DNA of 64,000 nt from a virus: the IMG/VR virus record IMGVR_UViG_3300025759_000058; one strand, 5' to 3'. Under the pieces are notes generated by a model, which was not told where the DNA came from, searched no databases, and worked only from the letters and a program-made list of their open reading frames with translations. Positions 33,910 through 64,000 of the stretch are shown in pieces; position 1 is the stretch's first letter; each line of letters starts with the position of its first letter. A program made the translations under genes and the position numbers.

Positions 33910-34788
33910 ATGAATTTAAAATCTCTACTCAATGAGATAATGTCTGAAGATGCCGTTGATGATTTAGCGAATGCATTCGAGACTGAAAAGATACCGGCAT
34001 TTACAGTAGCATTAGCTAATGCTATTAAAGATCCAAAGGTTAAAGCAATATTAGATGCAGGACTTGCTGACGGCTCGTTAAAGGATGATCAATTTATGTT
34101 TTCAGAGAAGCGTATACAATGTAAAAAATTACAGCCGACGCAGAACGAAATAGGATTCGATCAAAGTATTCAGAATTTATTAACAGATAAACACGGATCA
34201 TTAGAATCTATATTACGTGGCCAAGCTGATATGGGTCCTAATCCTATTGTAACTTATGACGGTAAGTTTATCATTGATGGACATCACAGATGGTCTCAAG
34301 CATTTACAGCTAATCCTAATAGTACAATTAGAGCAGTAGATATAAAAGCTAAGTCAGGTTACAGCCATTTAGATATTCTTAAAGTGGTACACGCCGCGGT
34401 CGCTAAACAATTAGGCAAAGTACCGTCTAATACAGCTCTAGGAAGTAATATACTCAAAGGCACTACGGAAGCAATTGTACAACGTGAAGTAGATGCTAAT
34501 CTAACGGATGAAGCTAGAAATATCTGGATGGAATTTGGCCAGAATATAGATTCGGATGCGGATATTGCACGCCAGATTACAGCTAATATAAATTTAATGG
34601 CTAAGAAAGGAAGTGCATTAGGCGCTCCTGGCAGAGAACATATGCCCCAAACGGATGCTGGTAATTTAAAGACAGCGGATACATTAAAACAACTTAAAGG
34701 TATAGTTAATGTTACCGAACCGTTTCAGGAATCGGTACGTGAAAAGTTTACTAGAATAGCGAGATTAAGAAAATATGGAAACGCCTGA
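33910..34788 (+). CDS. ParB/Srx-like domain protein with MNLKSLLNE leader
   Basis: LQPTQ and IIDGHHRW motifs. Confidence 0.75.
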   Translation: MNLKSLLNEIMSEDAVDDLANAFETEKIPAFTVALANAIKDPKVKAILDAGLADGSLKDDQFMFSEKRIQCKKLQPTQNEIGFDQSIQNLLTDKHGSLESILRGQADMGPNPIVTYDGKFIIDGHHRWSQAFTANPNSTIRAVDIKAKSGYSHLDILKVVHAAVAKQLGKVPSNTALGSNILKGTTEAIVQREVDANLTDEARNIWMEFGQNIDSDADIARQITANINLMAKKGSALGAPGREHMPQTDAGNLKTADTLKQLKGIVNVTEPFQESVREKFTRIARLRKYGNA

Positions 34789-35575
34789 ATACTTTGATAA
34801 CGTAACGATTGGCCAGTTTGCATTAACTGGTGTGCCGACTAAAGTATACGTTAATAACAGATATTTAAACATTACAGATCCGGATGATGTAGAGGATGCA
34901 TCTGTTGGATTTGGAATGGATGAGGATTCGGAAATGCATCCTTTCGATTATCGTTTAGTGCGACATTTACTTGTTGGCGGCGAAGTTGTCGATTTAGAGA
35001 CATTTAAAAAGGCATCTGAAGATGAATCAGGTGCTAAGGATGATTCTAAAGGCGAAGATAAGAAAGACAAGGAAGAGGATAAAGGCGAGGATAAGGAGTC
35101 AGATAAAGATAAAGGCGATGAAAAGGATAAAGAAGAGAAGAATCCTTTCGAAAGTATTTTAAAACTAAAGAGTATAGTCTCAGAATTAACAAAAGATGAG
35201 TTTGATGCTCAACAAGATTCATTGGAAGCAGACATGGATGCAGGAAAAGCAAAAATAGATGCAGCTAAAAAGAAATTAGCTGACTTGAAAAAACAACCGA
35301 TAGAAGAAGCGGCTAAGCCGAAATTTACGCAAGGCGATATTATTCAGAACACGGATAAAGAATGCGGTAGCTATGGTGCAATAGGTGTTGTTCAGAAAGT
35401 ATACAAAGATGACGATATTGAGAATGTCGTGTATAGAATAACAAATAATGGTCCTATGTTTAAGACTGGCGATTTGAGTACTAATAGAGCTGATCAATTA
35501 AAGGCGTATAGTAAAGACGATTTAATGCCAGATCCAGAGCTGCCCGAAGGAGAGCAGGTAAAGGAGAAAAAGTAA
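34775..35575 (+). CDS. hypothetical virion-associated protein with a D/E/K low-complexity linker
   Basis: Repeated DKGEDK-type units near 35030-35140, followed by an internal leader-like LKLKSIVSE. Confidence 0.65.
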   Translation: METPEYFDNVTIGQFALTGVPTKVYVNNRYLNITDPDDVEDASVGFGMDEDSEMHPFDYRLVRHLLVGGEVVDLETFKKASEDESGAKDDSKGEDKKDKEEDKGEDKESDKDKGDEKDKEEKNPFESILKLKSIVSELTKDEFDAQQDSLEADMDAGKAKIDAAKKKLADLKKQPIEEAAKPKFTQGDIIQNTDKECGSYGAIGVVQKVYKDDDIENVVYRITNNGPMFKTGDLSTNRADQLKAYSKDDLMPDPELPEGEQVKEKK

Positions 35576-36009
35576 TGGCGTCTGGTAAAAAAAAAGGCAT
35601 CGACGGAAAAGCATGTTGGGACGGATATCGCTATGCCGGAACCGAGGATGGAAAAGATAAATGCGTTAAGGTCAGTGAGTCATTAAAATTAGAAATCTGG
35701 GAGCATTCGCAGCCAGTGTTATGGCAAGAAGCAGAATACCAAGGACGTACGGTTAAATTAGGTAAAGTACAGAGAGGCGGCAAGAAGAAGTTTCAAGTGT
35801 ATGTACAAGATCCTAAAACTAAAAATGTTAAGAAAGTGTCATTTGGCGATACGACAGGACTTAGTATCAAAACTAAAGATCCAGATAGACGTAGATCGTT
35901 TAGAGCTAGACATAATTGCGATAATCCAGGTCCCAGGACAAAAGCAAGATATTGGTCATGCCGTATGTGGTCTGGCCCGGACGCTGTTAAGAATATGCTA
36001 AAGAAATGA
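35575..36009 (+). CDS. basic protein resembling T4-like phage head-associated proteins
   Basis: CWDGY, KVSFGD, RRSFRARHNC, ARYWSC motifs recalled from large myovirus proteins. Confidence 0.6.
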   Translation: MASGKKKGIDGKACWDGYRYAGTEDGKDKCVKVSESLKLEIWEHSQPVLWQEAEYQGRTVKLGKVQRGGKKKFQVYVQDPKTKNVKKVSFGDTTGLSIKTKDPDRRRSFRARHNCDNPGPRTKARYWSCRMWSGPDAVKNMLKK

Positions 36010-36851
36010 TTAAATTAAAAGATTTATTAGTTGAGTATCGCTCCGTTAAAGGTTTAGATACATTCGATTCCTCTAAAGAGAACGTTGTATTTTGGTCTGA
36101 TGGTATTATTATGATCAACCCTGAAAAGCCAATGGATGCAGCATCGGCAATGAGGACACTCACTAGTAAGTTTACAGGTCCTATTAGTATACAAGTAGAT
36201 CCAGTAAAAAAGTTTGTTACGATTTTTGATTATGATGATTGGAGTTCATTTAAGACAGTACCTTCATTTCAACAAGCCATAAAAGATTTAGTTCGTTTAA
36301 AATTGGTCAAGCCGAATTACGGTTTAAGAATTGGGTTATCAAATACAACAAAAAACCTGGGCAAATCTACAGTAAATGCGCTTCTGAAATATGATGCAAG
36401 TTATTCAAATACTATTCCTAGAGCATTTCATGGTACTACTGTAAAAGATTTAGGAACAATCAAACGATTAGGACTTGTTCCACCTAGCAAGAATAAATAC
36501 TCGGTATTGAAATGGGATGCGTTTTACACTGACGATTCGCCAGATAATATTTATCTATCTACGGATTTCGAACGTGCTGATACATATGCGAGACATGCGG
36601 TAGAAAAATACAAGGAAATAGGTATTAAAACTAAGCCTGTAATTTTGCAAGTAGATAATTTACCTATTGACAATGTAGTAGCGGATGACGATTTTAGATC
36701 AAACATGAGTATGGTCCATCTGATGAGTGTATTTCAGACGGGCAAAAAAGTAGATCCAGATTCATATATGTCGTCGATACGTAGTACTGCGCAATTCGGG
36801 TACAGAGGTCGTATACCAGCTTCGAAGATAACAAAGATTCATAAAATATGA
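36006..36851 (+). CDS. putative H-type ADP-ribosyltransferase-fold protein with MIKLKDLLVE leader
   Basis: AFHGT...IKRLGL, IYLST...A..YA, VILQV. Confidence 0.6.
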   Translation: MIKLKDLLVEYRSVKGLDTFDSSKENVVFWSDGIIMINPEKPMDAASAMRTLTSKFTGPISIQVDPVKKFVTIFDYDDWSSFKTVPSFQQAIKDLVRLKLVKPNYGLRIGLSNTTKNLGKSTVNALLKYDASYSNTIPRAFHGTTVKDLGTIKRLGLVPPSKNKYSVLKWDAFYTDDSPDNIYLSTDFERADTYARHAVEKYKEIGIKTKPVILQVDNLPIDNVVADDDFRSNMSMVHLMSVFQTGKKVDPDSYMSSIRSTAQFGYRGRIPASKITKIHKI

Positions 36852-37009
36852 TTAAACTTAAAGAAATGTTATCAGGATATGAACCAGTTGATGATTCTAA
36901 ATCTAACTTCGACCGGCCAGCTCATTATGAAGAGTATTATAAAAACTTAACGCCGAGCGAGTTTTCTGTAATGCGGAAGGGCAACTATATCGTAATAAAG
37001 ATTACATAA
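36848..37009 (+). CDS. small protein with MIKLKEML leader (53 aa; not in the ORF track)
   Basis: ATGA overlap with the upstream stop; carries the same leader. Confidence 0.6.
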   Translation: MIKLKEMLSGYEPVDDSKSNFDRPAHYEEYYKNLTPSEFSVMRKGNYIVIKIT

Positions 37010-37012
37010 TCT

Positions 37013-37043
37013 TTTGATTTATGTAATATAGTTTTTATATTTA
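37013..37043 (+). promoter_or_regulatory. class I promoter
   Basis: TTTG-N19-TATATTTA. Confidence 0.6.
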
Positions 37044-37048
37044 AGGAG

Positions 37049-37252
37049 ATGGTGATGGAAGAAAATTATCTCGAGTTAGCACTAGATGAAGTATACCAAC
37101 TAGTTGCATCAGGCGTTCGATGGCCGGAAAGCTTACAATCATCTTCTCATCGTAAAGCGTTCTTACGTGATATGATTGAATATTACGAAGAACATGAAGA
37201 ATATGAAAGATGTGCAACGTTACAGGAAATGATCAATGAATTGGAAGATTGA
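37049..37252 (+). CDS. hypothetical protein (UVR-like C-terminal motif)
   Basis: EEYERCATL motif. Confidence 0.6.
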   Translation: MVMEENYLELALDEVYQLVASGVRWPESLQSSSHRKAFLRDMIEYYEEHEEYERCATLQEMINELED

Positions 37253-37442
37253 ATCTCGTCCTATAGATGTTTATGAATTAGGACCAAATGATACACAACA
37301 AAAATATATTGTTTATGTATTAGATGATTTCGGCCGTCCTATTGAAGCCGAAGAGGCGTATGGAATAGAAGACCGTACACGTAAAACAAGATTATTTACA
37401 GCAAAGTATGGTAAATACATAGTAAAAATTGAACATCAGTAA
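37236..37442 (+). CDS. hypothetical protein
   Basis: 68 aa ORF overlapping the upstream gene. Confidence 0.6.
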   Translation: MNWKIESRPIDVYELGPNDTQQKYIVYVLDDFGRPIEAEEAYGIEDRTRKTRLFTAKYGKYIVKIEHQ

Positions 37443-37463
37443 TGTGGTATACAACTTGTACAT

Positions 37464-37730
37464 ATGACGTTGAAGTCCAATACACGCTCAAAGAGAAGAA
37501 AAAAGTTTAAGATTCATCTATTAGATGATGAGTTCAATTCATTTGAGCATGTCATTGTAGTATTGACATCATTGTTACCGGCATGCAATACAATTCGTGC
37601 AGAATCAATAGCCATGATTACACATAACGCCGGCCGATGTCATATCTATTCGGGGTTTGCGCCTGAAGCATTTGTGATGTACGCAAATTTAAAAAAAGCT
37701 GGCTTAACAGTTTCTTTAGATCGATCATGA
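37464..37730 (+). CDS. clpS: ClpS-like N-degron adaptor
   Basis: LLDDEFNSFEHVI...AMITHNAG...LKKAGLTV. Confidence 0.78.
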   Translation: MTLKSNTRSKRRKKFKIHLLDDEFNSFEHVIVVLTSLLPACNTIRAESIAMITHNAGRCHIYSGFAPEAFVMYANLKKAGLTVSLDRS

Positions 37731-38203
37731 AAAAGTATTTAGTTATATCATTTCTATTTATACCGATGACGATGTCATTAACGCCAATGCCCAGCCTTAA
37801 TTTACAGTTACCGCATGTACGAAAGATTACGCCTATTCAAGTAGACTCAATACAGCAAAGAGATGATCTTATCGCAGCCTTGATTCAGGTTGAATCGTCT
37901 GGTAATGATAAGGCATATAATGAATCTGAAGATGCGGTTGGATGTCTACAAATTCGACGTGTAATGGTAAGAGAAGTAAATCGTATCCTACGGCGTACGA
38001 ATAGTAAAGATAGATATGATATGGCCGATCGATGGAATTGTGATAAATCAAAAGAGATGTTCAATATATGGCGTGAATATCACCATGCCGATAGTGAATA
38101 CGAAACTATTGCCCGTAATTGGAATGGAGGCCCGAAAGGCTATAGTATGAGAGCTACGGAACGTTATTGGAAAAAAGTACAAAATCATTTGGATAGTAAA
38201 TAA
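37727..38203 (+). CDS. lytic transglycosylase / lysozyme-like protein with an N-terminal anchor
   Basis: IQVESSG, AVGCLQI, WNGGP. Confidence 0.8.
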   Translation: MKKYLVISFLFIPMTMSLTPMPSLNLQLPHVRKITPIQVDSIQQRDDLIAALIQVESSGNDKAYNESEDAVGCLQIRRVMVREVNRILRRTNSKDRYDMADRWNCDKSKEMFNIWREYHHADSEYETIARNWNGGPKGYSMRATERYWKKVQNHLDSK

Positions 38204-42075: not shown

Positions 42076-43236
42076 ATGCGTAAGTATAATTATTACCGAG
42101 TAGTAGCCGACGACGTTAATGGTTTGGTTTTGATCGACAGTGACGATCGAGTAATCAAATCACATAGTTGTCGTGATATTATGATGGAAAAGGCGTATGC
42201 TGAGGATCAATGTCTTCGCCATGATATGGATGAAGACCGATGGATGCGGCGTCCGAAGAGCGAGTGGGAGAGTGAACTTAAATCAAAAGTAAATGCCATG
42301 CATGAGCAACCAATTGAAGCCGATCCAGTATTGAACTTTATTCATAATGAAGCTGTAGGATTGCGTCCCGAGACATTGATCATGTCAGACTTGAAATGGA
42401 AGTATTTAGTCCGATCTGCAGTACGTGGCAAGAACATTATGATGACCGGCCCTGCGGGTTGTGGTAAAACGATGGCCGCTAAGCAACTAGTGAATGCATT
42501 GGATCGTCCGGATTATTATTTTAATCTTGGCGCGACACAAGATCCTCGAGGGACATTGATTGGTAACACCCACTTCAAGAAAGATGAAGGGACATTGTTT
42601 TCAGAATCGATGTTTGTAAAGGCAATCCAACAAGAAGATGCAGTGATTTTGCTTGATGAGATTAGCCGGGCACACCCAGAGGCTTGGAATATTTTGATGA
42701 CAGTGCTTGATCAAGGTCAGCGGTACCTGCGATTAGATGAACATCCGGATTCGCCAACCATCAAAGTGGCAAAGGGTGTGACGTTTATTGCTACTGCAAA
42801 TATCGGTAATGAATATACGGCGACCAGGGCAATGGACCGAGCGTTAGTTGATCGTTTCGTAATTATTGAAATGGATACATTGACTATGGAACAAGAATCG
42901 GCATTGCTGAAGATGTTGCATCCGCGCTTAGATCAGAGCCATGCAGATAACATTGCAGAAATTGCATCAATGACCAGACGAGAAGTACGTAGTGAGTCAC
43001 CTCGGATCAGCAATTCATTGAGTACACGTATTAGTGTAGAGATGGCCGGATTGATGGAGGATGGATTTTCATTAGCCGAATCGGCAGAGGTATGTGTCTA
43101 TCCATTCTTTGATGAAGAAGGAGGTGTAGATTCAGAACGTACATATATCAAGCAAATTGTTCAGAAGTATGCTGATACCAATGCTGAAGAAGATATCTTC
43201 AATACACAGGCAGAGACAGCAAATAATCCATTCTAA
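42076..43236 (+). CDS. MoxR/CbbQ/NorQ-type AAA+ ATPase
   Basis: GPAGCGKT, ILLDEISRA, ATAN, DRALVDRF, STR sensor. Confidence 0.92.
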   Translation: MRKYNYYRVVADDVNGLVLIDSDDRVIKSHSCRDIMMEKAYAEDQCLRHDMDEDRWMRRPKSEWESELKSKVNAMHEQPIEADPVLNFIHNEAVGLRPETLIMSDLKWKYLVRSAVRGKNIMMTGPAGCGKTMAAKQLVNALDRPDYYFNLGATQDPRGTLIGNTHFKKDEGTLFSESMFVKAIQQEDAVILLDEISRAHPEAWNILMTVLDQGQRYLRLDEHPDSPTIKVAKGVTFIATANIGNEYTATRAMDRALVDRFVIIEMDTLTMEQESALLKMLHPRLDQSHADNIAEIASMTRREVRSESPRISNSLSTRISVEMAGLMEDGFSLAESAEVCVYPFFDEEGGVDSERTYIKQIVQKYADTNAEEDIFNTQAETANNPF

Positions 43237-43246
43237 TTTAGGTGAT

Positions 43247-43276
43247 GGGGCAGCGGGTAATGCCGGCCCCTTTTTT
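43247..43276 (+). terminator. rho-independent terminator
   Basis: GGGGC...GCCCC stem followed by TTTTTT. Confidence 0.75.
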
Positions 43277-43286
43277 ATTTTTAATC

Positions 43287-43712
43287 ATGCAAATTGATAG
43301 ATATACTGATAAAGGGTTTATACGTTACGCGGAAATGCGGTCTGATGAAACTGGTAAATATCGACAAGGAATTGTAGTTAATAAACTTCTCACAAATATG
43401 GACTGTCCCGGTGTCTATGTATTATGTAACTGTACGGATGGGTCCGTTGAGAAGATTGGCGAGACGGCCGATTTCGAAGCACGTATGCGTATGTATGTAT
43501 CAATAGTTAATACTACAAACAATAGAGTACGTAATCAAGTCAAATTCAGCGGCCTAGACGTATATGTTTATCCAACACCTGTAGTATCTGAAATCGTCAT
43601 GGGGCATAAATGTTTAACTAGCTTTCAGAAGGATTTAGAGAAATATTTATTGATGGAGTTCAGGAAAGAAAATGACGGCCGGTTACCATTACTTAATGCA
43701 TGTAATCGGTAA
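43287..43712 (+). CDS. GIY-YIG-like nuclease domain protein
   Basis: GVYVL...KIGET...RMRMY, LEKYL, PLLN. Confidence 0.6.
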   Translation: MQIDRYTDKGFIRYAEMRSDETGKYRQGIVVNKLLTNMDCPGVYVLCNCTDGSVEKIGETADFEARMRMYVSIVNTTNNRVRNQVKFSGLDVYVYPTPVVSEIVMGHKCLTSFQKDLEKYLLMEFRKENDGRLPLLNACNR

Positions 43713-43729
43713 ACTTTTTTTACAAAAGA

Positions 43730-43761
43730 TTAGGTTTCGAAATAGTTATTTCTTATCTTTA
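43730..43761 (+). promoter_or_regulatory. class I promoter
   Basis: TTAG-N20-TATCTTTA. Confidence 0.75.
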
Positions 43762-43785
43762 GATATGAAGAAAAAGGTAAATAAA

Positions 43786-45822
43786 ATGTCAAAGAGTGCT
43801 TCAAGCTTTTGGTTGGATGAAGATTTTCTTGATAATCATGGTCAGGATAAAAAAGGAAAGGATCCAATCAAATTGGCAGCATATCGTAAAGCAGTTGCAA
43901 ACTTTGTACGTATTGTAACGGGTGAGGATATTAAGGTTAAGTTTACGCAGAACGGTAAAAGTTATACGGACGGCAAAGCTGTTACTATTTCGGCTACATT
44001 AGATGATAAGAAATTTGATTCGGCTGTAGGTTTAGCTTTGCATGAGGGTTCGCATATCAAATTGACGGATTTTAATGTCGTGCGTATGATAGATGATTTC
44101 ATCCAACGTAAGGACGATTATGTGTTGGAGTATAAGCAAAAATATCAGTTAGAAGATCGATGGATGGTTAGTAACAAAATTGGTGTAACGTTACGTGATC
44201 TTCTTAATATCGTCGAAGACCGACGTATCGACAACTTTGTATATAAGTCAGCTCCCGGCTACCGCGGGTATTATCAAGCATTGTATGATAAATATTTTAA
44301 TTCAACCATTATTGATAAAGGTCTTGAATCGGACGAGTATCGTACAGAGGAGTGGGAGTCGTATATGTTCCGTATTATTAATATTACCAATCCTAAACGA
44401 GATTTAAATGCATTGAAGAGTCTTCGTACGGTATGGGATATAATGGATCTTGCAAATGTCGATCGACTTAAAAGCACGGCCGATGCATTGAATGTTGCAT
44501 GGGAGATCTTTAAAGCCGTTGAAGAATCAATTGAAGTAGTAGAAAATAAAGCTTCAGATAGCCAGCCAGATTCGGATCAGATACAAGAACAGCAATCCTA
44601 TGGCAACTCGGCAGGCACCGGAACGTCCGGAACTTCAAATGAAGATGATACTGAAGATGGTGATGATGATGGAGAATCGGCTGATGGTAGTGAAGTAGAA
44701 GCATCGCCAGGTAATATTAACGGAGGGTCTATGCCAGATGTTGAGCTTGAGCCTTTAAGTGCTAAAGAACATGATCGTCTGCAACGAGCAATTCATCAGC
44801 AAAAAGATTTTCTGAATGGTCATCTTAAGAAGACCGGTCTTAGTAAAAAGAATCTACGTGAAGTAGAAGCTTTGGAAGCAGCGTCAGTTGACGAGCGAGA
44901 AGTTTCATATACGAAGCAGTCTTATTACGGCGATACAATTCAAAAGCAAAAGGTTGTTGTCATTAAAGATATTTCAAAAGAAATGATTGATAACCTAAGA
45001 TGCGATATGTGGTCTGAATGGGGAGTAAATGATCGTCTTGAATGGGTGAATGAAGGTATCATATTTGGTACTGCATTGGGTAAGAAGTTGAAAGTGCGTG
45101 ATGATGAGAAGTCGACTAAATACAATCGTCTTCGTTCCGGCCGAATTGATAAGCGAATGATTGCAGCTGCAGGTTATGGTGCCGAAGGTATCTTTGAGAA
45201 GATTGAGACATTTGCATATCGCCCGGGCATGATTCATATTTCAATTGACAATAGCGGATCGATGAGCGGCCATAAATTCCGTAAAACAATTGTGAGTGCA
45301 ACTGCAATTGCAAAGGCTTGTAGTATGATTGATAATATGGAATGTGTTATTAGTTTTCGATCGACAGCAACGATCGGTGATCAAAGTTATCATCAGGCAT
45401 TACCGACGATTGTTATTGCATATGATAGTCGCCGAGATAGCATCATGAAGATGCGAACCATTATGCCATTCATGAATGTATGTGGCGGCACGCCAGAAGG
45501 CCTATGTTTTGATGCCGTTATGAAAGAAATTCTTGACGGTTCAAATGGTAAAGATGCATATTTTGTTAACTTCTCCGATGGTCAGCCATATTGTGGTAAC
45601 TACCATGGTGTAGCCGCATATACACATACCAAGAAGCAAGTTGATAAGATGGTTAATAATAATATCAAAGTTATTAGCTATTTTATTACAGAGAGCCGTT
45701 CATCATACGGCCACGATGAGGATGTATTTAAAACAATGTATGGTAAAGATGCATCATTCATCGATGTAACAAAAATGCGTGAAGTTGCCGGCAGTATTAA
45801 TAAGAAGTTTTTGCAAGTATAA
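43786..45822 (+). CDS. HExxH metallopeptidase-like plus VWA domain protein (CobT/NorD-like partner of the AAA+)
   Basis: HEGSH...NIVEDRRI, an acidic linker, MIDAS DNSGS, GGTP, FSDG. Start at 43765 or 43786. Confidence 0.85.
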   Translation: MSKSASSFWLDEDFLDNHGQDKKGKDPIKLAAYRKAVANFVRIVTGEDIKVKFTQNGKSYTDGKAVTISATLDDKKFDSAVGLALHEGSHIKLTDFNVVRMIDDFIQRKDDYVLEYKQKYQLEDRWMVSNKIGVTLRDLLNIVEDRRIDNFVYKSAPGYRGYYQALYDKYFNSTIIDKGLESDEYRTEEWESYMFRIINITNPKRDLNALKSLRTVWDIMDLANVDRLKSTADALNVAWEIFKAVEESIEVVENKASDSQPDSDQIQEQQSYGNSAGTGTSGTSNEDDTEDGDDDGESADGSEVEASPGNINGGSMPDVELEPLSAKEHDRLQRAIHQQKDFLNGHLKKTGLSKKNLREVEALEAASVDEREVSYTKQSYYGDTIQKQKVVVIKDISKEMIDNLRCDMWSEWGVNDRLEWVNEGIIFGTALGKKLKVRDDEKSTKYNRLRSGRIDKRMIAAAGYGAEGIFEKIETFAYRPGMIHISIDNSGSMSGHKFRKTIVSATAIAKACSMIDNMECVISFRSTATIGDQSYHQALPTIVIAYDSRRDSIMKMRTIMPFMNVCGGTPEGLCFDAVMKEILDGSNGKDAYFVNFSDGQPYCGNYHGVAAYTHTKKQVDKMVNNNIKVISYFITESRSSYGHDEDVFKTMYGKDASFIDVTKMREVAGSINKKFLQV

Positions 45823-46100: not shown

Positions 46101-46751
46101 ATGAAAGTAGAATTAATTAACAAGACGCCAGATGCTGAAATGCATATTGTGGAGGTTGCACGTGTATCTAGTTCACGTACGGATAAGAAAGATAAACCGG
46201 AAGGCCTTTTATCATACTTGGTACGTCACAAGCACTGGTCACCGTTCGAGCACAGTTATGCGACGTTCGAGATTGAAACTTCCAAAGCCATCGGTATCCA
46301 GCTCATCCGTCACCGTTCATTCACTTTTCAAGAGTTTAGTCAACGATATCAAGATGTTAATCATTTGGGAGATATCTTCGAAGCCGTTGAGTTACGGTCG
46401 CAGGCAAAAGATAATAGACAAAGTTCAGTCGATGTGATTGATCCTAGGATTGACTTTAAGTATCCTGAAATAGCCGCATCCGCTGCGATAAACAGTCACC
46501 TCAAAGATGTCCATGAGTTATATGATAAACTTTTAAATGCTGGCGTAGCGCGCGAAACGGCACGAATGATTTTGCCTCTATGTACTAAGACAAAAATTCA
46601 TATGACAGGCTCATTGAGATCATGGATACATTTCTTAGAGCTACGAGATGATCCTCATGCACAGAAAGAGATTCAAGAGATTGCAAAAGAGGTTAAGCGG
46701 CAGTTTGCAGATAACTTTCCTATCATCAGTAAAGCATTAGGTTATAAATGA
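46101..46751 (+). CDS. thyX: FAD-dependent thymidylate synthase ThyX
   Basis: HWSPFEH, RHRSFTFQEFSQRY, ETARMILP, HAQKEI. Confidence 0.97.
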   Translation: MKVELINKTPDAEMHIVEVARVSSSRTDKKDKPEGLLSYLVRHKHWSPFEHSYATFEIETSKAIGIQLIRHRSFTFQEFSQRYQDVNHLGDIFEAVELRSQAKDNRQSSVDVIDPRIDFKYPEIAASAAINSHLKDVHELYDKLLNAGVARETARMILPLCTKTKIHMTGSLRSWIHFLELRDDPHAQKEIQEIAKEVKRQFADNFPIISKALGYK

Positions 46752-55599: not shown

Positions 55600-55619
55600 G
55601 CATATTTATATTTAGTTAA
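55600..55619 (+). promoter_or_regulatory. 20-bp repeated element containing the class II motif (copy 2)
   Basis: Identical to 55237-55256. Confidence 0.65.
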
Positions 55620-55635: not shown

Positions 55636-55869
55636 ATGAACAAATCACAATTGCGCGCTATTATAAGAGAAGAGATTGCCATGATTAAAAATCTCAATGA
55701 GCGCGAAGTATATCGATCTGCCGAATTTGAAGAAATTGATGGCGCTATAGAAACACTCATGGATAACATGAATATTGCATATACCGATAAAAATATAGTG
55801 CGTAAATTTGAAAATATGCTCAAGCAGATATCCGATTATAATACGCAAGTAGGCACCCAAATCCAATAA
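55636..55869 (+). CDS. small protein with a QLRAIIREEI...LNE leader
   Basis: Amphipathic leader ending in L-N-E; a related RLRKIILEEY..ITE segment occurs inside 58293-59741. Confidence 0.7.
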   Translation: MNKSQLRAIIREEIAMIKNLNEREVYRSAEFEEIDGAIETLMDNMNIAYTDKNIVRKFENMLKQISDYNTQVGTQIQ

Positions 55870-56035: not shown

Positions 56036-56686
56036 ATGATAAAACTTAAAGATTTCATACCGGAAGATTTTAAAGATGCGGCGTTCCATGGTAATGGAAT
56101 GACACCGCAGGAAATGAGAACGAATACATGCTCCGTAACATGGGAAAATCCAGAACAAGATACTGGATGCCCTCAGTTTTCATTTAAAGGCGGTAAGATA
56201 TCTAAAGAGAATCAACAACTGGCAATGCAGTATCTTAATTCAGAACATATTAAAGTATTAATAGCATTTTCTTCCGGAGGCCCTTTATTAATGCAATCTT
56301 TAACCGCTGGAGCAAAAAGGCCAGATCAAATTAATTTTGTTGCACCTGCATGGAAAAAACATTGGGTATCGGCGCCTATTAATCCTAAGGATTGTGCAGG
56401 TAAAGGTTTTATCGTGCAAGGTGTAGATGATGTTGCCGTACCAATTGCACATTCCATAGAGTTGTCAATACAGAGCGGATTACCTTTATATCTATTTCCA
56501 GACCGCGGTCATATCAATATTTTAAAACATAAGTTATCAACTGCAGGAGGAACGCCAATATCAAGAAATGAGTTAAAAACTGCGTTAAAATATTTACCAG
56601 ACTGGGGATCGGAGAGGGATGGTAATTCTAATGAAATCAAACAGCAACAAGAATGGTTTAATACTTTTATTGGCAAAGCTTCGTAA
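56036..56686 (+). CDS. alpha/beta hydrolase with MIKLKDFIPE leader
   Basis: Nucleophile elbow AFSSGG, QGVDDVAVP (Asp), RGH (His). Confidence 0.72.
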   Translation: MIKLKDFIPEDFKDAAFHGNGMTPQEMRTNTCSVTWENPEQDTGCPQFSFKGGKISKENQQLAMQYLNSEHIKVLIAFSSGGPLLMQSLTAGAKRPDQINFVAPAWKKHWVSAPINPKDCAGKGFIVQGVDDVAVPIAHSIELSIQSGLPLYLFPDRGHINILKHKLSTAGGTPISRNELKTALKYLPDWGSERDGNSNEIKQQQEWFNTFIGKAS

Positions 56687-56702: not shown

Positions 56703-57473
56703 ATGATTAAATTACGTGACATATTACAAGAATTAGATTACGGTAAAAAACTATTTGCTCATGACCCGGACGATCAAATCGCCGATTATCCGTTTGATTG
56801 GGATAAATTTATTGAAAAGTTATATTCACCGGACTTCGAAGCTAATACATGGGCCGAAGATGCTATGCTTAAAGCATTGCAAGCTTATACTTCCGGTAAA
56901 CAAGGCCGTACCGATACATTAGCCAACATGTTGCGTAAATTGTTACCTCTCAAATCCAAATTCCCACGTATATTAGATCCGATGGGTAACACTACAAAAC
57001 CGCCATCCTGGAAGATGGATTTAGATTGGGCTGCTGATTATCCTGATCATGCATGGCGAGGCACTCGTGTGACCCCTGCGTGGGCACATGGTCAATTGGC
57101 CAATCCATCGGTATACCGCACCATTGCAATATCTCAAGCATGGTCCACACTCGATGGACCTGCGGACAACCTAAAAGCATACATCATCGATGATGGATCT
57201 GTAACCTATCGATCTAAGGGTGAGGCTATGATATCATTTTCCGAATCCCCACGTACTGCACTTAATTTTGCTAAAAAAGCGAGTGGTAATACTTTGCCTG
57301 TTATATTAGGCGTATCTAAACGGCATCCGGAATTGATCATGAATATAGATTCCATGGAGGCCTTATCAGAATATAATGAAGCCGAAATGTTTCTTTTGAA
57401 CAGTACCTTTAACCCCGATGTTATTGTATTTTTAGATCCATGGAGTCCAGACTATATAGCATCCTTAGTATGA
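56703..57473 (+). CDS. putative R-S-E ADP-ribosyltransferase paralog 1 (MIKLRDILQE leader)
   Basis: AWRG, ISFS...ALNFA, NEAE. Confidence 0.65.
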   Translation: MIKLRDILQELDYGKKLFAHDPDDQIADYPFDWDKFIEKLYSPDFEANTWAEDAMLKALQAYTSGKQGRTDTLANMLRKLLPLKSKFPRILDPMGNTTKPPSWKMDLDWAADYPDHAWRGTRVTPAWAHGQLANPSVYRTIAISQAWSTLDGPADNLKAYIIDDGSVTYRSKGEAMISFSESPRTALNFAKKASGNTLPVILGVSKRHPELIMNIDSMEALSEYNEAEMFLLNSTFNPDVIVFLDPWSPDYIASLV

Positions 57474-57527
57474 CTTACTTTACATAAGTACTTGATATTT
57501 ATTAATAGATACAAGGAATAATTGTTT

Positions 57528-58283
57528 ATGATACGACTTACCCAATTACTACAAGAAATAGATGCCCCGATAGCTGGTATTGCTAATTTAGTAGCATTAA
57601 ATGCCACAGGGTCTGGCTCAGATACCGAATCGGTCGAAGATTTATCATTTAAATTTAGGTCTAAGAAAGGCCGGAAGACGAAGGGTGTATTAATTCATGA
57701 CATCATTACTATAGATGTATTTAATTCTCCTGGCAAAGAAAATATACAATTATTACCATACCATTTAATCTTTGGAGAATCGAGTATGGCAATTTTTGAT
57801 GCGTTCGGTGCAAATGAGGTCGCCGGACTTAAACGAAGTGATTGTCAAGCACATTTAGATAAATTAGCTGCAGAAGGAAAGACGGAAGCCGATGATGCAT
57901 TTATAGCCGGACTTGTTAACTTTGCAGGAGAGAAAATATTTCAGTTTATCAATGTAACAAGAGCATCGATTCCAGGATTCATTAATCGTATTTTACCACA
58001 TGAATCGTTACATATGACTCGATATTTAATTACATTGGAAGGTAATGAATGGATGAGGAATAATCTTAGTACACCAAATTGGTGGGAAGATGATCGTGCA
58101 GTAATGATTGACCTTACTAATGATAATGAAGAATATTTTGCCGAAGTACTTGAACGTATTAATGCAGTTGCTTATGATCGTTGGGCAAAGGCAAAAGGAT
58201 TAATACAAAAGCCTGTAGTTACATCCTTGAAGCCACTTAGCCCGGATGAGTATAAAACACAAAATATTAAGATTAAAAAATAG
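57528..58283 (+). CDS. HExxH metallopeptidase-like protein with MIRLTQLLQE leader
   Basis: LPHESLH followed by NEEYFAE. Confidence 0.62.
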   Translation: MIRLTQLLQEIDAPIAGIANLVALNATGSGSDTESVEDLSFKFRSKKGRKTKGVLIHDIITIDVFNSPGKENIQLLPYHLIFGESSMAIFDAFGANEVAGLKRSDCQAHLDKLAAEGKTEADDAFIAGLVNFAGEKIFQFINVTRASIPGFINRILPHESLHMTRYLITLEGNEWMRNNLSTPNWWEDDRAVMIDLTNDNEEYFAEVLERINAVAYDRWAKAKGLIQKPVVTSLKPLSPDEYKTQNIKIKK

Positions 58284-58292: not shown

Positions 58293-59741
58293 ATGAATGA
58301 TAAAAAACATGATTCAAAGATTAACGAATCGCCTGATATAAATGATCCAGTTTTAGTAGCATTCAGAGCTGCTAAGATGAACCGTGAAAAGGAATTGGCA
58401 AAACCAAAGCGTAAGCCACTTTATGGTAAGCAAAGACAAAGAGCTGAAGATGTCTTATGGAACATTAGTCGGGAGCTAAAAGAACTTTATGCTGAAAGAG
58501 GTCAAATATTAATTGACATGGAGCAGGAAGCCGAGATTGAAGGTGGTTCAATTGCCAATGAATATGGTGATCGATTAAATAAGATTGAAGATCGAATTCA
58601 AAAGTTACTCTCTAACAGAAAACAATTAGAAATGAAATTGGCAGAGTCTAAGGAGATTGACGAATCATGCGGTTGTGATCATTCAAATAAGCAAAATCTT
58701 AAAGAATTTGATTTAACTGATATTAGTGTATGGGAAGCCATTTTCGCCGGCGGCCTGTTTGAAGTAGGAAGAATGGCCGTTGATGTATTAGTGGCAATTG
58801 GATTTATTGCATTATCAGGTATTTCTTTATCAGCTGCGTTATTAATTAATAAAGTAAGACAAGTACGTAAAGATCGTAGAGCTATTAAAGGTGCAAAAGA
58901 AGCACAAGATTGGCTAGCGTCGACACCTGAGATGAAAGCCTTTAATAAGATTTTAGCAGATGTAGAACGTGCACGTACTAAGATGGCTAAAACAAAACGT
59001 CCGATTGACGGAGGAGATGATGCTGCATATAAAAACGCTACTGATGCATTTAAATCAATTTCAGATAAACGAAAGACCACGGGATTGTCATTATATAAGA
59101 AAGCAGTTAATGCTGGATTATCAAACGAAGCTTTAGAATATCTCGTAGATAATATCGAATATATGTCCGTAGCAAAAAGTATGTATGATCGCCGCACGAC
59201 AAATGAAGGCATCATGAGTGAGTTAGACTTGATGGCACAAGAAGCTAGCGATTTTAACGACTTCATTAATGATGTATTCAGTGATCCTGCGTATAGAAAA
59301 CATAAAGGTAATCAAGAAGTCATGGACTTTTTAGATATCTTTTATAAAGAGAGAAGAGGTGCAGTATCTGAACAGTCTAATATTTTAGTAAGTAGATTAC
59401 GTAAGATTATTTTAGAAGAATATATTAAGATTACTGAAGCTAAACGTATTAATAGGTCACAGACTAAAATTTATGAAAAAGGATTTAAGGAAGCTATTCC
59501 GTCTGTAAAATGGGTAAAATCGGCATTTCATCGCGGTGAACCGAAACTGTTTATAGATTATTCTAAATTTTCGGATAGAGCAAAATTACAACGTGTCGGA
59601 GAACAACTGGGGCTTACATATGTAGCCGATGGCCGTGTAACAAATAGACCAGGCTTAGATTACAATAGAGGTGATAGGATGACGGGAGGTAGCGGTACTT
59701 TAGGTATTGGCAATAATTGGATGGTATTTATAAAGGAATAA
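58293..59741 (+). CDS. multidomain virion-associated protein, possible polyprotein
   Basis: Coiled coil, hydrophobic hairpin, and many hydrophobic-x-E sites at apparent domain junctions. Confidence 0.65.
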   Translation: MNDKKHDSKINESPDINDPVLVAFRAAKMNREKELAKPKRKPLYGKQRQRAEDVLWNISRELKELYAERGQILIDMEQEAEIEGGSIANEYGDRLNKIEDRIQKLLSNRKQLEMKLAESKEIDESCGCDHSNKQNLKEFDLTDISVWEAIFAGGLFEVGRMAVDVLVAIGFIALSGISLSAALLINKVRQVRKDRRAIKGAKEAQDWLASTPEMKAFNKILADVERARTKMAKTKRPIDGGDDAAYKNATDAFKSISDKRKTTGLSLYKKAVNAGLSNEALEYLVDNIEYMSVAKSMYDRRTTNEGIMSELDLMAQEASDFNDFINDVFSDPAYRKHKGNQEVMDFLDIFYKERRGAVSEQSNILVSRLRKIILEEYIKITEAKRINRSQTKIYEKGFKEAIPSVKWVKSAFHRGEPKLFIDYSKFSDRAKLQRVGEQLGLTYVADGRVTNRPGLDYNRGDRMTGGSGTLGIGNNWMVFIKE

Positions 59742-59745
59742 AAAA

Positions 59746-60114
59746 ATGTCAAAGTTAAAAAAACTATTACCAAAACGCATTATTAAAGAATCGGTAGTGT
59801 CAGAGGCACCGTCCGCATACGAAAAGTTTGCACGTAATGCAATGAATTTGAAATCACTTATACCGGCAGTATTTAGAAAAAATGTCGAACCATGGGAAGC
59901 AGTTGAATATACCGATCGTCTTTCAAAGGATATAACAATACTGAATCATACCATGTTAAAAACATTGAAGGCTAAAGTTACTGCCGGTGAAATAGATGAT
60001 GCAACACGTAAGGAAATATCTAAATTAGTTACTGAAATTGATTTTGCATTGCTAGATGTCAATGATGCTCGTAAAGAATTAGAAAAATATTTAGATTCGT
60101 TTGGTATGGCATAA
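59746..60114 (+). CDS. hypothetical protein with MSKLKKLL...IKE leader
   Basis: Leader variant; helical protein. Confidence 0.7.
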   Translation: MSKLKKLLPKRIIKESVVSEAPSAYEKFARNAMNLKSLIPAVFRKNVEPWEAVEYTDRLSKDITILNHTMLKTLKAKVTAGEIDDATRKEISKLVTEIDFALLDVNDARKELEKYLDSFGMA

Positions 60115-60118
60115 GACT

Positions 60119-60736
60119 ATGTTACGATTAAAACAAGTATTACTTGAAGTGTTGAACGAAATGCCGTTAATTACGTTGCAAAATAAAACGGCATATGCAG
60201 ATGATAAGCCTCTTAAATCGATGGATTTGGAAACCATCGGTCCTAATGTAACTATATACCACGAAGAAAAGGGTAACTTTTTTATTGCAAAAAATAAAGT
60301 ATACTTATGGTTTACTTCCACTGAAAACTGGGTTGATAAAGTTAATGCCGGCGAATATGATCTTGTCATGTTTCCTATTAAGACATTATCTAATGCATTT
60401 ACATTAAGTCCAATTACTGATGTATGGCGGAAATCGAAAGCTAGAGGGAAGACAGAAGTTTTAGGTATGATAGAAGCATATTTAGATGACAAAGAGTTAA
60501 TTATTCAGATGATGAGTGTACGTAATCCTTATCGTAAAAATAGAATTAATTCGTTTATGCTAGATTCGCTCAAAGAAAAGTTTCCAACTCATGAGCTAGT
60601 ATTTGAAGATCCGACAAATGATGGATGGAACTTTATAGCTAGCTATGACCCCAATGCACGTGCAATAGATTCTTCCGGGGAAGAAGTACAGATGCCATCA
60701 AAAATTGCAGCAAAACACTTAAAAAAGGTAAAGTAA
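60119..60736 (+). CDS. GNAT-like acetyltransferase with MLRLKQVLLE leader
   Basis: Motif A-like MSVRNPYRKNRINSFML, and PTNDGWNF. Confidence 0.6.
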   Translation: MLRLKQVLLEVLNEMPLITLQNKTAYADDKPLKSMDLETIGPNVTIYHEEKGNFFIAKNKVYLWFTSTENWVDKVNAGEYDLVMFPIKTLSNAFTLSPITDVWRKSKARGKTEVLGMIEAYLDDKELIIQMMSVRNPYRKNRINSFMLDSLKEKFPTHELVFEDPTNDGWNFIASYDPNARAIDSSGEEVQMPSKIAAKHLKKVK

Positions 60737-60814
60737 TGTCACAGCTATATGAGTATACCGGTCCAGCAAAATATCGAATTGCTCGTATGAAAGGCAAATG
60801 GGGCAGCTAATAAT

Positions 60815-61606
60815 ATGTTACAATTACGTAGCATAATGAATGAATTCGATTACGGTCGTCGACCGTTAGATGATCCACAAGGCTGGAAGCCTGAAGATGT
60901 ACAGTTAGGCGTCCACTTCCTTAAAAGCCGTTACGGAATGACATTATCAGATTTTGGTTTGGAAGGTGAGCCAAATACGGAAGATGAGAAACAGTTAATA
61001 GCATTCCTTGAAGAATTTTTTGATATGCCAGAAATGGTTGCTAATAAAGCAAAGTTTGCGGATATGTTAAGTGTGCTAGTCAAAGTTAAGTCTAAATTTC
61101 CTAAGTTATTAGATCCGGCACAAGGTACGCCGAAAGAGTTTATATGGAGAGGGGCTACTATAACACGAGATATATTCATGGATCTAAATTGGAAGGTCAT
61201 TAAAAAGGCTGATCCATATCTCGTAGCTACAAGTCCAATCAAGCCAGTTAAACCTAGATCAGGCCGCGGCGTTCATTCTTTTACAGCTGTCTGGCAAACC
61301 GCATGGAAGTTTGCTAATAGACATAATATTCATCCTAATATGTGGCGTATTCCATGCGTTTTTAAGATAAGTGTAAAAGATAAAAATACATTATTTAATC
61401 CTATGTTTTTAAATACAATTGGAATGTGGAGTGAGTTTGAAGTACTATATGTAGGCGATAGTTTTAAGCCGATAGAATATCAAATACCATCATATGTCAT
61501 TAAACGTATAATGTCGCTTCAAAATAAAGCTGATCAAACTCCGGAGGTTGCTGCATTTTATTCAAAACTAACGCCAATGGCAGCTGAAATGAAGATCTTA
61601 AAATGA
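60815..61606 (+). CDS. putative R-S-E ADP-ribosyltransferase paralog 2 (MLQLRSIMNE leader)
   Basis: IWRG, HSFT...AWKFA, SEFEVL. Confidence 0.68.
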   Translation: MLQLRSIMNEFDYGRRPLDDPQGWKPEDVQLGVHFLKSRYGMTLSDFGLEGEPNTEDEKQLIAFLEEFFDMPEMVANKAKFADMLSVLVKVKSKFPKLLDPAQGTPKEFIWRGATITRDIFMDLNWKVIKKADPYLVATSPIKPVKPRSGRGVHSFTAVWQTAWKFANRHNIHPNMWRIPCVFKISVKDKNTLFNPMFLNTIGMWSEFEVLYVGDSFKPIEYQIPSYVIKRIMSLQNKADQTPEVAAFYSKLTPMAAEMKILK

Positions 61607-62457
61607 TTCGGCTTCGTAATATATTACAAGAATTCGAATATGGTGATCGTTTATTCGATGACCCAAAGCAATTTAGTATGACTGCTCGTGCTGATACTAG
61701 CTTCATGAAGTATTGGGCACCATTTATAAATGGCGAAGAAAATACGTCAGATGAATACTATTTATTAAACGCATTAAAGTCTTGGTCCGAAGATCCCCCC
61801 GATGAGAGATGGCTTAATCAACGTGTAGATGACCTTAAGTTTTTACTGACACTTAAAAATAAATACCGAAAAATACTGGACCCATCTGAGAGTAAATTTG
61901 CACATCCTAAGTATGTATTTCGTGTTGCAACAATCCCAATGTCAACAGCTGTTAAAGCATTAAAGACGTTAAGTAGTAATGAACTACGTACGGATTATTC
62001 AAATAAAAATCCTATAGATATTGATATGCCAGTAACTTTAAAGTCTCGAAGTAAACGTGGGTATTATTCGTTTACAACACAATTTAATGTTGCAATGTCA
62101 CTAGCCGGACATGCCCAATTGGGTGCCGCAAAATATGATCAGGTTTACTATTATAAACGAATACCAGCAATTATTAAAGTAGAACATAACTCGCCAAAAT
62201 TATTATTCAATCCGGACTTTTTTGAAGGAATTTCTAGATATGGGGCTGAAAGCGAAACGCTATATGTAGACTCTAAAATAAAAGCAGCTGGTATAGTACT
62301 TCCTACAAACTTCATCGAAGAAATTGTAACAGGAGGTGAACGTTATACGTCAGGCGGCTCGATTGAAAAATACCGAGATTCATTAATAAGCCAGTTTCCT
62401 GATGATCCAGATGTACAGGCATTATATAAAATTCTAGATCCTATAGTCAATCTATGA
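61603..62457 (+). CDS. putative R-S-E ADP-ribosyltransferase paralog 3 (MIRLRNILQE leader)
   Basis: VFRV, YSFTT...A, AESETL. Confidence 0.65.
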   Translation: MIRLRNILQEFEYGDRLFDDPKQFSMTARADTSFMKYWAPFINGEENTSDEYYLLNALKSWSEDPPDERWLNQRVDDLKFLLTLKNKYRKILDPSESKFAHPKYVFRVATIPMSTAVKALKTLSSNELRTDYSNKNPIDIDMPVTLKSRSKRGYYSFTTQFNVAMSLAGHAQLGAAKYDQVYYYKRIPAIIKVEHNSPKLLFNPDFFEGISRYGAESETLYVDSKIKAAGIVLPTNFIEEIVTGGERYTSGGSIEKYRDSLISQFPDDPDVQALYKILDPIVNL

Positions 62458-63212
62458 TCAAATTACGTAATATATTGCAAGAATTTGATTACGGTAAGCG
62501 ATTATTTGCTGATCCAGAAAATTACGATAATGTACTTGACGCTGATGAATTAGGTCCTATAGGCTATGATAATATATGGGATATAGAAACTGATACTGAG
62601 GATGAGATACGTGCTATGGATTTGTTAAGTACGTTTTATCAAGGCGATTTTGTCGGTTTAGATGAGAGTGAATTAAAGATTCTTATTAAATCGTTGAAAC
62701 GATTAAAGGCAAAATTTCCAAAGATTTTAGACCCAAAGACTAGTCCAGAAATTGAAAAATATGTTTATCGCGGTGCAACTATATCTATAGATGCAATCAA
62801 AGATATGCCATTTAAATTAGTATCTAATGATATAATCTTTACAGTACCAGCTAAGTTCGAAGTACATCCTCGGTCGGGCCGGCCGATGCATTCATTTAGT
62901 GTCGAAAAATATATGGCTGAGTCATATGTGCACGGTAAAGTATACGACTCTATATTAGACCCCGGCCGTATTCCGATTGTAATACATGTTAATGTCAACG
63001 ATCCTAATTTATTATTTTCAACAAACTTTTCGTCATTACATAGTACATTTGATGATGAAAAGGAAGTGTTCTATGCAAACAAAACTATTACAGTGAGTAA
63101 ATTATCAATTAAACACTCACTAGTGCAAGATATATACAAAAATATCTTCGATTTGCCTGAAGACTCAAAATACTATGACGTATATACTAAATTGTATAAT
63201 GTTACAGCATAA
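62454..63212 (+). CDS. putative R-S-E ADP-ribosyltransferase paralog 4 (MIKLRNILQE leader)
   Basis: VYRG, HSFS...A, DEKEVF. Confidence 0.68.
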   Translation: MIKLRNILQEFDYGKRLFADPENYDNVLDADELGPIGYDNIWDIETDTEDEIRAMDLLSTFYQGDFVGLDESELKILIKSLKRLKAKFPKILDPKTSPEIEKYVYRGATISIDAIKDMPFKLVSNDIIFTVPAKFEVHPRSGRPMHSFSVEKYMAESYVHGKVYDSILDPGRIPIVIHVNVNDPNLLFSTNFSSLHSTFDDEKEVFYANKTITVSKLSIKHSLVQDIYKNIFDLPEDSKYYDVYTKLYNVTA

Positions 63213-63221
63213 TATTTATAT

Positions 63222-64000
63222 ATGATGATTAGTCTAGTAAAGTTATTGCAAGAAATACGTCTATTAGAAAAAAATAAGACTGTAGATTTTTTTCGCAAAA
63301 ACCCACGTGCATTAAAATATTTTAGTATACCAGACGCTCCTGGAGGTACCGAATGGGACCTCAGATCTTTCCCAACGTCAGGTGAGCCTGTCGATACTTC
63401 TGATGTTGAGCAGGCTTATGATGCGATTGCACGATTAGACCCTTCAAATGAATTTTTGAAATCATTAAAAACAGAACTTCGTAGTTATAATAGAGAAGAT
63501 GTTTTATTGTCCATTGATAAATCATCATCATACGAAGAATTTTTACGAAAATACGGCGATACGTGGTACACTACGCTTTTTACCGCCGCCGGTGAACAAG
63601 CTTGGAAAGATTCGGCAGACCATGATACGATGAACAGACTTTGGAAACAAATACAGCGCATCACTAAAGCATTTGCAGCCCGTAGGGAAGGTACAAAAAA
63701 TATTGAGTATAAACGCTTTGAAAAGGCAATGTATAAATTAGGATTAAGCCCTAATAGTGTACGAGCTGCATTAGATTGGGTTAAGTACTATACTGCCGGC
63801 AGTTACCGTAAAATAGATCCGGAGGCCTTTGATGCTTTACAACAAATAACTGTCGACGCATCACGTTTACCTAAATACATTTATCGAGGATTTTTCTTTG
63901 ATGGCGCGAAAATTAAAGACAGAGAAAAGTTTATTCAAAAGTGGAAAGAAGGTTCGATGCCCAAAAGCGGATTACGGAAAGCTACTAGTTGGTCAGGTGA
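63222..64000 (+). CDS. 3'-truncated putative ADP-ribosyltransferase (MMISLVKLLQE leader); runs off the window
   Basis: Open frame to the window end; YYTAGSYRKI, YIYRG and ATSWS resemble VIP2/exotoxin-type ART motifs. Confidence 0.68.
   Translation, partial: MMISLVKLLQEIRLLEKNKTVDFFRKNPRALKYFSIPDAPGGTEWDLRSFPTSGEPVDTSDVEQAYDAIARLDPSNEFLKSLKTELRSYNREDVLLSIDKSSSYEEFLRKYGDTWYTTLFTAAGEQAWKDSADHDTMNRLWKQIQRITKAFAARREGTKNIEYKRFEKAMYKLGLSPNSVRAALDWVKYYTAGSYRKIDPEAFDALQQITVDASRLPKYIYRGFFFDGAKIKDREKFIQKWKEGSMPKSGLRKATSWSG

Follow-up and report, generated by a model that had tools for sequence, protein, structure and literature searches.

Short N-terminal peptides that direct proteins into the phage head are known from phage T4, in which the first 10 residues of internal protein III (IPIII) are enough for packaging, residues 4 and 7 function in targeting and residues 8 and 10 in processing, and the protease gp21 cuts after L/I-x-E (PMC9026906). 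T-even phages have hypervariable internal-protein loci whose products, a varied set of anti-restriction proteins, have only this capsid targeting sequence (CTS) in common (PMC3012670); that a conserved CTS can head diverse internal proteins is thus already established for these phages (PMC3012670, PMC9026906). In phiKZ-like phages and SPN3US, a gp21-related protease likewise cuts after Glu in the propeptides of ejection proteins, for which prohead targeting has been proposed (PMC9026906, PMC5694885). Packaging and injection have also been predicted for the polyvalent proteins of phages and conjugative elements (Iyer et al. 2017, PMC5512222). Here we describe a 10-residue N-terminal leader borne by about 13 genes in a 64,000-nucleotide stretch of viral DNA (IMG/VR record IMGVR_UViG_3300025759_000058; the whole stretch is hereafter the window). 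From sequence and by analogy, the leader is probably the functional counterpart of the T4 CTS in this phage lineage.

The leader has the consensus M-I-K-L-K/R-D/N-I/L-L-x-E. In the six-frame translation of the window, the strict pattern M[IL][KRQ]L[KRT].[ILFVM][ILM].E has eight matches, all at the first codon of + strand genes (36006, 56036, 56703, 57528, 60119, 60815, 61603, and 62454), and none in 30 shuffles. Looser versions head five further genes (33910, 36848, 55636, 59746, and 63222). All 12 leader starts listed in a preliminary description of this DNA are present; the leader of 55636, MNKSQLRAIIRE, is an additional copy absent from that list. The same description held that the full leader is not on replication or metabolic genes, and a scan of the N-termini of the window's open reading frames (ORFs) with a position-specific scoring matrix (PSSM) bears this out, with no others at or above 6 bits and no tag on replication and metabolic genes. 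All-against-all BLASTP identifies the products of 56703, 60815, 61603, and 62454 as paralogues (1e-9 to 1e-25), and similarity between non-paralogous tagged proteins is confined to the first ~10 residues; by this comparison, the window's tagged genes comprise about nine independent families. The earlier count of about 12 enzymes of at least five folds is overstated: four are paralogues, two are small, non-enzyme-like proteins, and only the ADP-ribosyltransferase fold of the paralogues has reasonable support.

The window's phage is a distant relative of phage T4, as judged from a gp43-type DNA polymerase (3676–6156, +) that matches T4-type phages only, the top match being Microcystis phage Mel-JY01 at 44% identity. 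IMG/VR contains many relatives of this phage, and five long ones (G001–G005) were analysed in full: the polymerases of G001–G003 are 73–77% identical to that of the window, and those of G004 and G005, which are complete by CheckV, are 52% identical. Trained on the window, the PSSM detects N-terminal copies in each of the five relatives, a scan that the preliminary description had proposed, with about 10 each in G004 and G005 (e.g., MIKLKDILKE, MIKLRDILNE, and MIKLKNILTE). Among 39 tagged proteins from seven related genomes, column conservation is high at residues 1–8 and 10 and is gone from residue 11, with L4 in 37/39, I/L7 in 36/39, L/I8 in 38/39, and E10 in 36/39; the predicted (I/L)-x-E cleavage motif thus occupies residues 8–10, and conservation ends with its Glu. 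Stripped of their leaders, the 39 bodies fall into 32 BLASTP clusters.

Beyond these relatives, the exact peptide MIKLKDILxE was sought as a degenerate DNA pattern in IMG/VR and in prokaryote genomes totalling 596 Gb. The pattern is present in at least 120 IMG/VR stretches, against 15 matches in the prokaryote DNA, nearly all of which are on contigs of metagenome-assembled or single-amplified genomes; the tag is therefore virus-specific. Among the IMG/VR matches listed, 130 of 131 open an ORF of at least 40 residues (eight with an upstream in-frame ATG), and the bodies of these 130 proteins form 72 clusters. With so many unrelated body clusters, the tag is also portable, as had been supposed. 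It exists, is portable, and is restricted to viruses. Two cultured phages carry it: Mel-JY01 (MIKLKSLLQE, MIKLKSLLKE, and MIKLMSLVTE; tagged genes at 60276, 60923, and 62056 of PP395634) and, in one copy, Flavobacterium phage immuto (MIKLIDLLTE; 24569 of NC_055915). Neither the string MIKLKDIL nor phage Mel-JY01 is mentioned in the papers searched, and neither megablast nor tblastn matched the tagged genes to any cultured phage.

A second leader class, M-x-x-S/x-Q/E-L-R-x-I-I-R/K-E, occurs in G002, G003, G005, five immuto genes (one of which sits between the portal and protease genes), and the window itself, where MNKSQLRAIIRE begins a 77-residue protein (55636–55869, +) and ends in I-x-E. The relation between the two classes is seen in the family of gene 36006 (36006–36851, +; leader MIKLKDLLVE), which has 49 homologues. 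Nearly all members begin with MIKLxDILxE, and in a few a second-class leader (…MQLRKIISE, of the MxxxQLRxIIxE type) precedes the same body, with the junction again at this Glu. From these junctions, the lineage appears to possess at least two tag classes that are interchangeable, a feature that distinguishes it from T4. The motif …(Q/E)LRxII(R/K)E(E) and a third motif, MNLKxxYxRLFxG, are also present on further small proteins, some of them inside head or baseplate modules; loci of these second and third motifs are window 55636, L001:18451–18846 and L263:10001–10429 in contigs that extend the window's own phage, G003 25216 and 52731, and immuto 81525, 102294, 102880, 113188, and 123355.

The setting in which such leaders would be processed is encoded in the relatives. 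G002–G005 encode Peptidase_S77 (gp21), and the head module of G002 and G003 has the order terminase, portal, small proteins, gp21, small proteins, an acidic 290-residue protein in the gp22 (scaffold) position, and gp23; the head modules of immuto and Mel-JY01 are annotated with the same order. The preliminary description had anticipated a T4-like context with a gp21-type protease, and the lineage encodes one. In the N-terminal alignment of gp23 proteins, the T4 maturation site E65|A66 is invariant (FLTE|AE in T4, LVTE|AN in G002 and G003, and IVSE|AN in immuto), from which it follows that the L/I/V-x-E specificity of the protease has very probably been kept in this lineage. Judged by gene content and these alignments, the lineage has the T4 head-maturation machinery, with the cleavage motif conserved at the maturation site of the capsid protein. 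Peptidase_S77 is also encoded in all six of the exact-tag IMG/VR records that are at least 90% complete (it is absent only from records that are at most 50% complete) and in 8/8 tag-bearing genomes that are at least 95% complete.

The head proteins themselves begin in a similar manner. The scaffold-position protein starts with MKDLLKE|AIADAK, the first part of which matches tag residues 5–10, and the gene after gp21 in the relatives starts with MKLKDLLE. The capsid proteins start with MSLHSILNE (G004), MKISSLLED (G005), and MNLNSLLP (G002 and G003), and the variant leader of 33910 in the window, MNLKSLLNE, resembles the first and last of these. In the T4 record, the corresponding short propeptides are MKTYQEFIAE (ipII and ipIII), MAKINELLRE (gp24), and MELITE (Alt). 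The tag resembles these T4 sequences in being ~10 residues at the extreme N-terminus of otherwise unrelated proteins, in having hydrophobic positions 4 and 7 and L/I-x-E at 8–10, and in its background of gp21, a gp22-position scaffold, and gp23-type head assembly, here seen in relatives (PMC9026906, PMC5694885). The conserved L4, I/L7, L/I8, and E10 of the tag fall on the positions that T4 uses for targeting and processing, and the residues at positions 4 and 7 differ from the Tyr4 and Phe7 of IPIII. The phiKZ-like and SPN3US propeptides differ: their length is 80–130 residues, their motif is S/A-x-E, and they have no short decapeptide in common.

Two classes of motif precede genes in the window. 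Motif A (CTTAT[CA]TTTA) is found 12–13 nt before the start codons of many small genes (e.g., 6180, 13556, 41629, and 54777); its resemblance to the Bacteroidota -7 promoter element suggests an early, host-type promoter with very short leaders. Motif B (ATATTTAT[AT]) is found 10–45 nt before genes, examples being at 14900, 33882, 55602, 57495, and 63212. In G002 and G003, ATATTTAT is found before the genes for portal, terminase, sheath, tube, and baseplate, and the window's own phage has it ahead of the gp25 baseplate unit; because of this position upstream of structural genes, the sequence evidence suggests that it is the late promoter of the lineage. Several tagged genes had been said to follow a motif, and the late-promoter-like ATATTTAT is indeed at 33882–33889 (+), 28 nt before gene 33910; at 55602–55609 (+), 34 nt before 55636; at 57495–57502 (+), 33 nt before 57528; and at 63212–63219 (+), 10 nt before 63222. 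It heads both tagged clusters, and the tagged genes between motifs are tightly packed. The T4 late-promoter rule is not transferable to this phage, given that its consensus, TATAAATA, has no occurrence in 73 kb.

We infer from this material a pathway of core binding, cleavage, packaging, and injection of the tagged proteins. The leader would be a 10-residue N-terminal propeptide that binds the scaffolding core during prohead assembly, whereby the protein behind it would be enclosed in the head; a gp21-type (Peptidase_S77) prohead protease would remove the leader by cutting after Glu10. When the phage next infects a cell, the mature cargo would leave the head together with the DNA; this cargo includes ADP-ribosyltransferase-fold (ART-fold) proteins, a candidate ParB-like nuclease, and an HExxH domain. 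Several lines of evidence argue for a capsid-targeting function. The phage is T4-like, and its relatives encode S77, gp23, and, where gp22 would be expected, an acidic protein; the last residues of the tag form the L/I-x-E motif of the protease, exactly where conservation stops, and the scaffold-position and capsid N-termini bear the same motif. Furthermore, the bodies are unrelated, the tag is virus-specific, and every near-complete tagged genome encodes S77; one leader class replaces another at the same junction in the 36006 family; and ATATTTAT precedes structural genes as well as both tagged clusters. Finally, the cargo resembles packaged effectors, both in its polyvalent-type domains and in the ART fold of one family, a fold also possessed by T4 Alt.

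Five observations weigh against this pathway. T4-like phages are common among large aquatic viral contigs, which makes the co-occurrence of S77 a weak discriminator. For the window's own phage, the structural genes on the extension contigs are those of baseplate and tail only, and genes for a protease, a scaffold, and a capsid protein are not among them; the search for a prohead protease gene, which the preliminary description had called for, succeeded in the relatives G002–G005 and not in the extension contigs of this phage, which do not reach the head module. The late-type motif is upstream of 19% of tagged IMG/VR genes versus 15% of other genes, a negligible enrichment, and the support from the late-motif evidence is modest. 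Some tagged IMG/VR proteins have Pfam domains that look metabolic rather than effector-like (RimK, NT5C, and FMN reductase). Homology between the tag and the T4 CTS MKTYQEFIAE is not detectable, only M1, the hydrophobic position 8, and E10 being shared; on this comparison, the relation of the tag to the T4 CTS would be one of function and position, not of demonstrable descent.

An unlikely alternative to capsid targeting is that the tag docks proteins to an assembly or partner other than the head core, such as the tail, the baseplate, the portal exterior, or a phage chaperone (e.g., GroEL/Cpn10). Two features of the window's own phage would suit docking: the gene immediately upstream of baseplate gp25 has a product with a related motif (…LRTIIREEVRT), and Cpn10 is encoded as well (precomputed Pfam). 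However, docking would not account for a tag whose end coincides with a protease motif and with the conserved capsid maturation site, or for the presence of the motif on the scaffold-position and capsid proteins themselves, and most of the cargo proteins are small and enzyme-like, not adhesin- or fibre-like.

It is quite improbable that the tag is a degradation or modification signal, whether as an N-terminal degron read by ClpP-type proteases or as a handle that a modifying enzyme recognizes, by which potentially toxic enzymes would be timed or restrained. The own-phage extension does contain a ClpP-like protease gene (PF00574; L261:16063–16659), ~14 kb downstream of the window and ~4 kb upstream of baseplate gp25, with HSP20, UvdE, and HAD_PNKP genes nearby. 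However, phage ClpP is present in only 3/8 near-complete tag-bearing genomes, compared with S77 in all eight, which rules it out as an obligatory partner of the tag; no conserved neighbouring modifying enzyme was seen; and the tag motif recurs in head-module proteins.

Selection acts on the peptide and not on the DNA, because leader codons vary freely between copies (Leu TTA/CTT; Ile ATT/ATA/ATC; Lys/Arg AAA/CGT/CGA/CGG) and identity is lower at the third codon position (0.50) than at positions 1 and 2 (0.63), compared with ~0.41 in the next ten codons. An mRNA-level element, that is, a translation-initiation or regulatory region reused by recombination and encoding a functionless peptide, is therefore extremely improbable: the leader sequence is AT-rich and at the extreme 5' end of genes, and modular promoter cassettes are known in T4-type genomes, but copies often differ by synonymous or conservative codon changes, tagged genes have no upstream DNA in common, and the amino-acid motif is retained even between phages whose polymerases are only 52% identical.

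With regard to the cargo that a capsid-targeting leader would deliver, no tagged protein of the window has a match above cut-off in Pfam, PHROGs, or NCBIfam. The best-characterized bodies are those of the four paralogues, encoded at 56703–57473 (leader MIKLRDILQE), 60815–61606 (MLQLRSIMNE), 61603–62457 (MIRLRNILQE), and 62454–63212 (MIKLRNILQE), all on the + strand, in which R106, S147-F148, and E202-x-E204 are invariant across 12 sequences. An AlphaFold2 model of the 62454 protein has a mean predicted local distance difference test (pLDDT) score of 73.5, with a confident core and residues 1–47 below 50. All 50 VIA rows and the informative Foldseek matches for this model are ADP-ribosyltransferases, including Vis (best, Z 5.9), Tpt1/KptA, the A chains of heat-labile, cholera, and pertussis toxins, Arr, and C2-I; the scores are moderate (Z 4–6; Foldseek E ~0.1). 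There is reasonable support for a predicted R-S-E-type ADP-ribosyltransferase fold in this family. Its profile finds nothing useful among PDB sequences and gives only low-probability alignments with the 63222 protein and the 36006 family. Comparison with T4 Alt gives an hhalign probability of 0.3%, and a profile search of the T4 genome found nothing.

The protein at 36006 may have a His-Tyr-type ART fold. The only three PDB matches to the profile of its family are Tpt1, DarT, and diphtheria toxin, at an FHGT motif with E-values of 0.2–1.9, and Atlas leads also point toward ART; an AlphaFold2 single-sequence model was unusable (pLDDT 36). Among the folds considered, only the ART fold of the paralogue family has reasonable support, and the earlier ART call for 36006 is weak. 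The calls of ParB for 33910 (33910–34788, +; 9-residue variant leader MNLKSLLNE) and of GNAT for 60119 (60119–60736, +; MLRLKQVLLE) fall below Pfam cut-offs: the body of the former has a weak match to the ParB-like nuclease domain ParBc_2 (E=4.7e-4) and a match to phrog_2859 (E=1.7e-6), and the latter has a weak GNAT-like match (E=0.0047). The alpha/beta hydrolase call for 56036 (56036–56686, +; MIKLKDFIPE) comes down to serine hydrolase-like motifs read by eye, with no Pfam, PHROG, or NCBIfam match; 12 of 13 homologues of this protein keep the leader.

Two bodies link the tagged set to polyvalent proteins. The HExxH domain of 57528 (57528–58283, +; leader MIRLTQLLQE; residues 33–231) is 50–57% identical to a domain inside multidomain proteins, the largest of which has 1923 residues, and stand-alone homologues of the 57528 body have other N-termini, several with a hydrophobic-hydrophobic-x-Glu stretch. 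The body of 60119 (residues ~41–173) is homologous (E 1e-18 to 1e-24) to the domain directly N-terminal of HExxH in three of four large proteins, and in the fourth, P0077, the 60119-like domain is ~400 residues from the HExxH domain. Some of these large multidomain proteins (~690–1900 residues) add GNAT or RadC/JAB domains, and none begins with the leader. Their architecture is that of polyvalent proteins, with which the tagged set shares these homologous adjacent domains and the presumed delivery of several enzymes with the DNA; it differs in that each domain is here a separate gene with its own leader (PMC5512222). On a phage-like 54-kb contig (L289, from JGI 3300050207), GNAT, 60119-like, and 57528-like HExxH domains are combined in one 1143-residue protein, and a separate ART-PolyVal gene is close by.

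The remaining tagged genes in the window, all on the + strand, are 36848–37009, a 53-residue ORF with the partial leader MIKLKEMLSG, which lacks Glu10; 59746–60114, which encodes a 122-residue protein with the variant leader MSKLKKLLPKRIIKE; and 63222–64000 (variant leader MMISLVKLLQE), which runs beyond the end of the window and is 588 residues in full. The 482-residue gene at 58293–59741 (+) belongs to the same tightly packed unit as 57528 and is without the canonical leader. Outside the window, the domains found in tagged IMG/VR proteins include DUF5824, RNase_T, NUDIX, lysozymes, Peptidase_M23, Zeta-toxin-like kinases, ADPrib_exo_Tox, 2H phosphoesterase, and an Acb1-like protein.

The window's phage tags ~13 genes, many of them enzyme-like, whereas T4 tags 3–5. 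As at the T-even internal-protein loci, a conserved address peptide is attached to rapidly changing, clustered cargo (PMC3012670). The differences from those loci are in host phylum (probably Bacteroidota here, for reasons given below), tag family, and cargo, which comprises ART-fold, HExxH, and nuclease-like domains here, compared with small basic inhibitors such as IPI. What is added to the established principle is the link to polyvalent-protein domains and the cultured carriers, Mel-JY01 and immuto. A wider proposal, for and against which we see the balance as even, is that MIKLKDILxE and its sister tags constitute a virus-only address system of a large aquatic T4-like clade, which, by imitating scaffold and capsid N-termini, loads dozens of interchangeable single-domain effectors (ART-fold, HExxH, nuclease, lysozyme, NUDIX, and Acb1-like) into the head, splitting giant polyvalent proteins into individually addressed genes.

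Should the tag prove to be a capsid address, the injected-protein repertoire of a large group of uncultured aquatic phages, candidate anti-defence and host-takeover enzymes included, could be read from metagenomes by one simple sequence rule. Such a rule would also connect two hitherto separate ideas, that of T4 internal proteins and that of polyvalent injected proteins, and would provide a ready-made packaging tag for Bacteroidota phages. The prediction is directly testable in the two cultured phages that have the tag (Mel-JY01 and, with its single copy, immuto).

All long ORFs in the window are on the + strand, and the GC content is 33–39%. The host is suggested to be a member of the Bacteroidota, probably Flavobacteria, because CHU_C, Hc1, and DUF4494 domains are encoded in genes downstream of the window, because a SusC-like TonB receptor is encoded within it, and because the cultured relative immuto, which was found via the capsid protein of G003 (55% identity), is a Flavobacterium phage. 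Metagenome contigs share window DNA (e.g., ENA ERZ27275032 k141_762940, which is identical over 11.5 kb), contigs of the window's own phage are 158–174 kb in full (e.g., ENA ERZ27275030 k141_518211), and overlapping contigs extend the phage upstream (gp32, UvsX, RNase H, a gp41-type helicase, and ribonucleotide reductase) and downstream (the ClpP-like gene, gp25, and baseplate and fibre-like genes).

Several other genes of the window are of separate interest. The SusC-like TonB-dependent receptor (47807–50530, +; 907 residues) has a signal-like N-terminus, and its CarbopepD_reg_2, Plug, and TonB beta-barrel domains each exceed the Pfam cut-off; as an auxiliary gene, it is unusual for a phage. 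A MoxR/CobS-like AAA+ ATPase (AAA_5) is followed by a 716-residue protein with a CobT_C/VWA region (42076–45822, +), and ThyX is encoded at 46101–46751. At 409–2719 (+), precomputed Pfam annotations of matching contigs indicate QueD/PTPS-like, radical-SAM (QueE-like), Cpn10, and GTP cyclohydrolase I genes, which suggest a 7-deazaguanine pathway together with a phage co-chaperonin.

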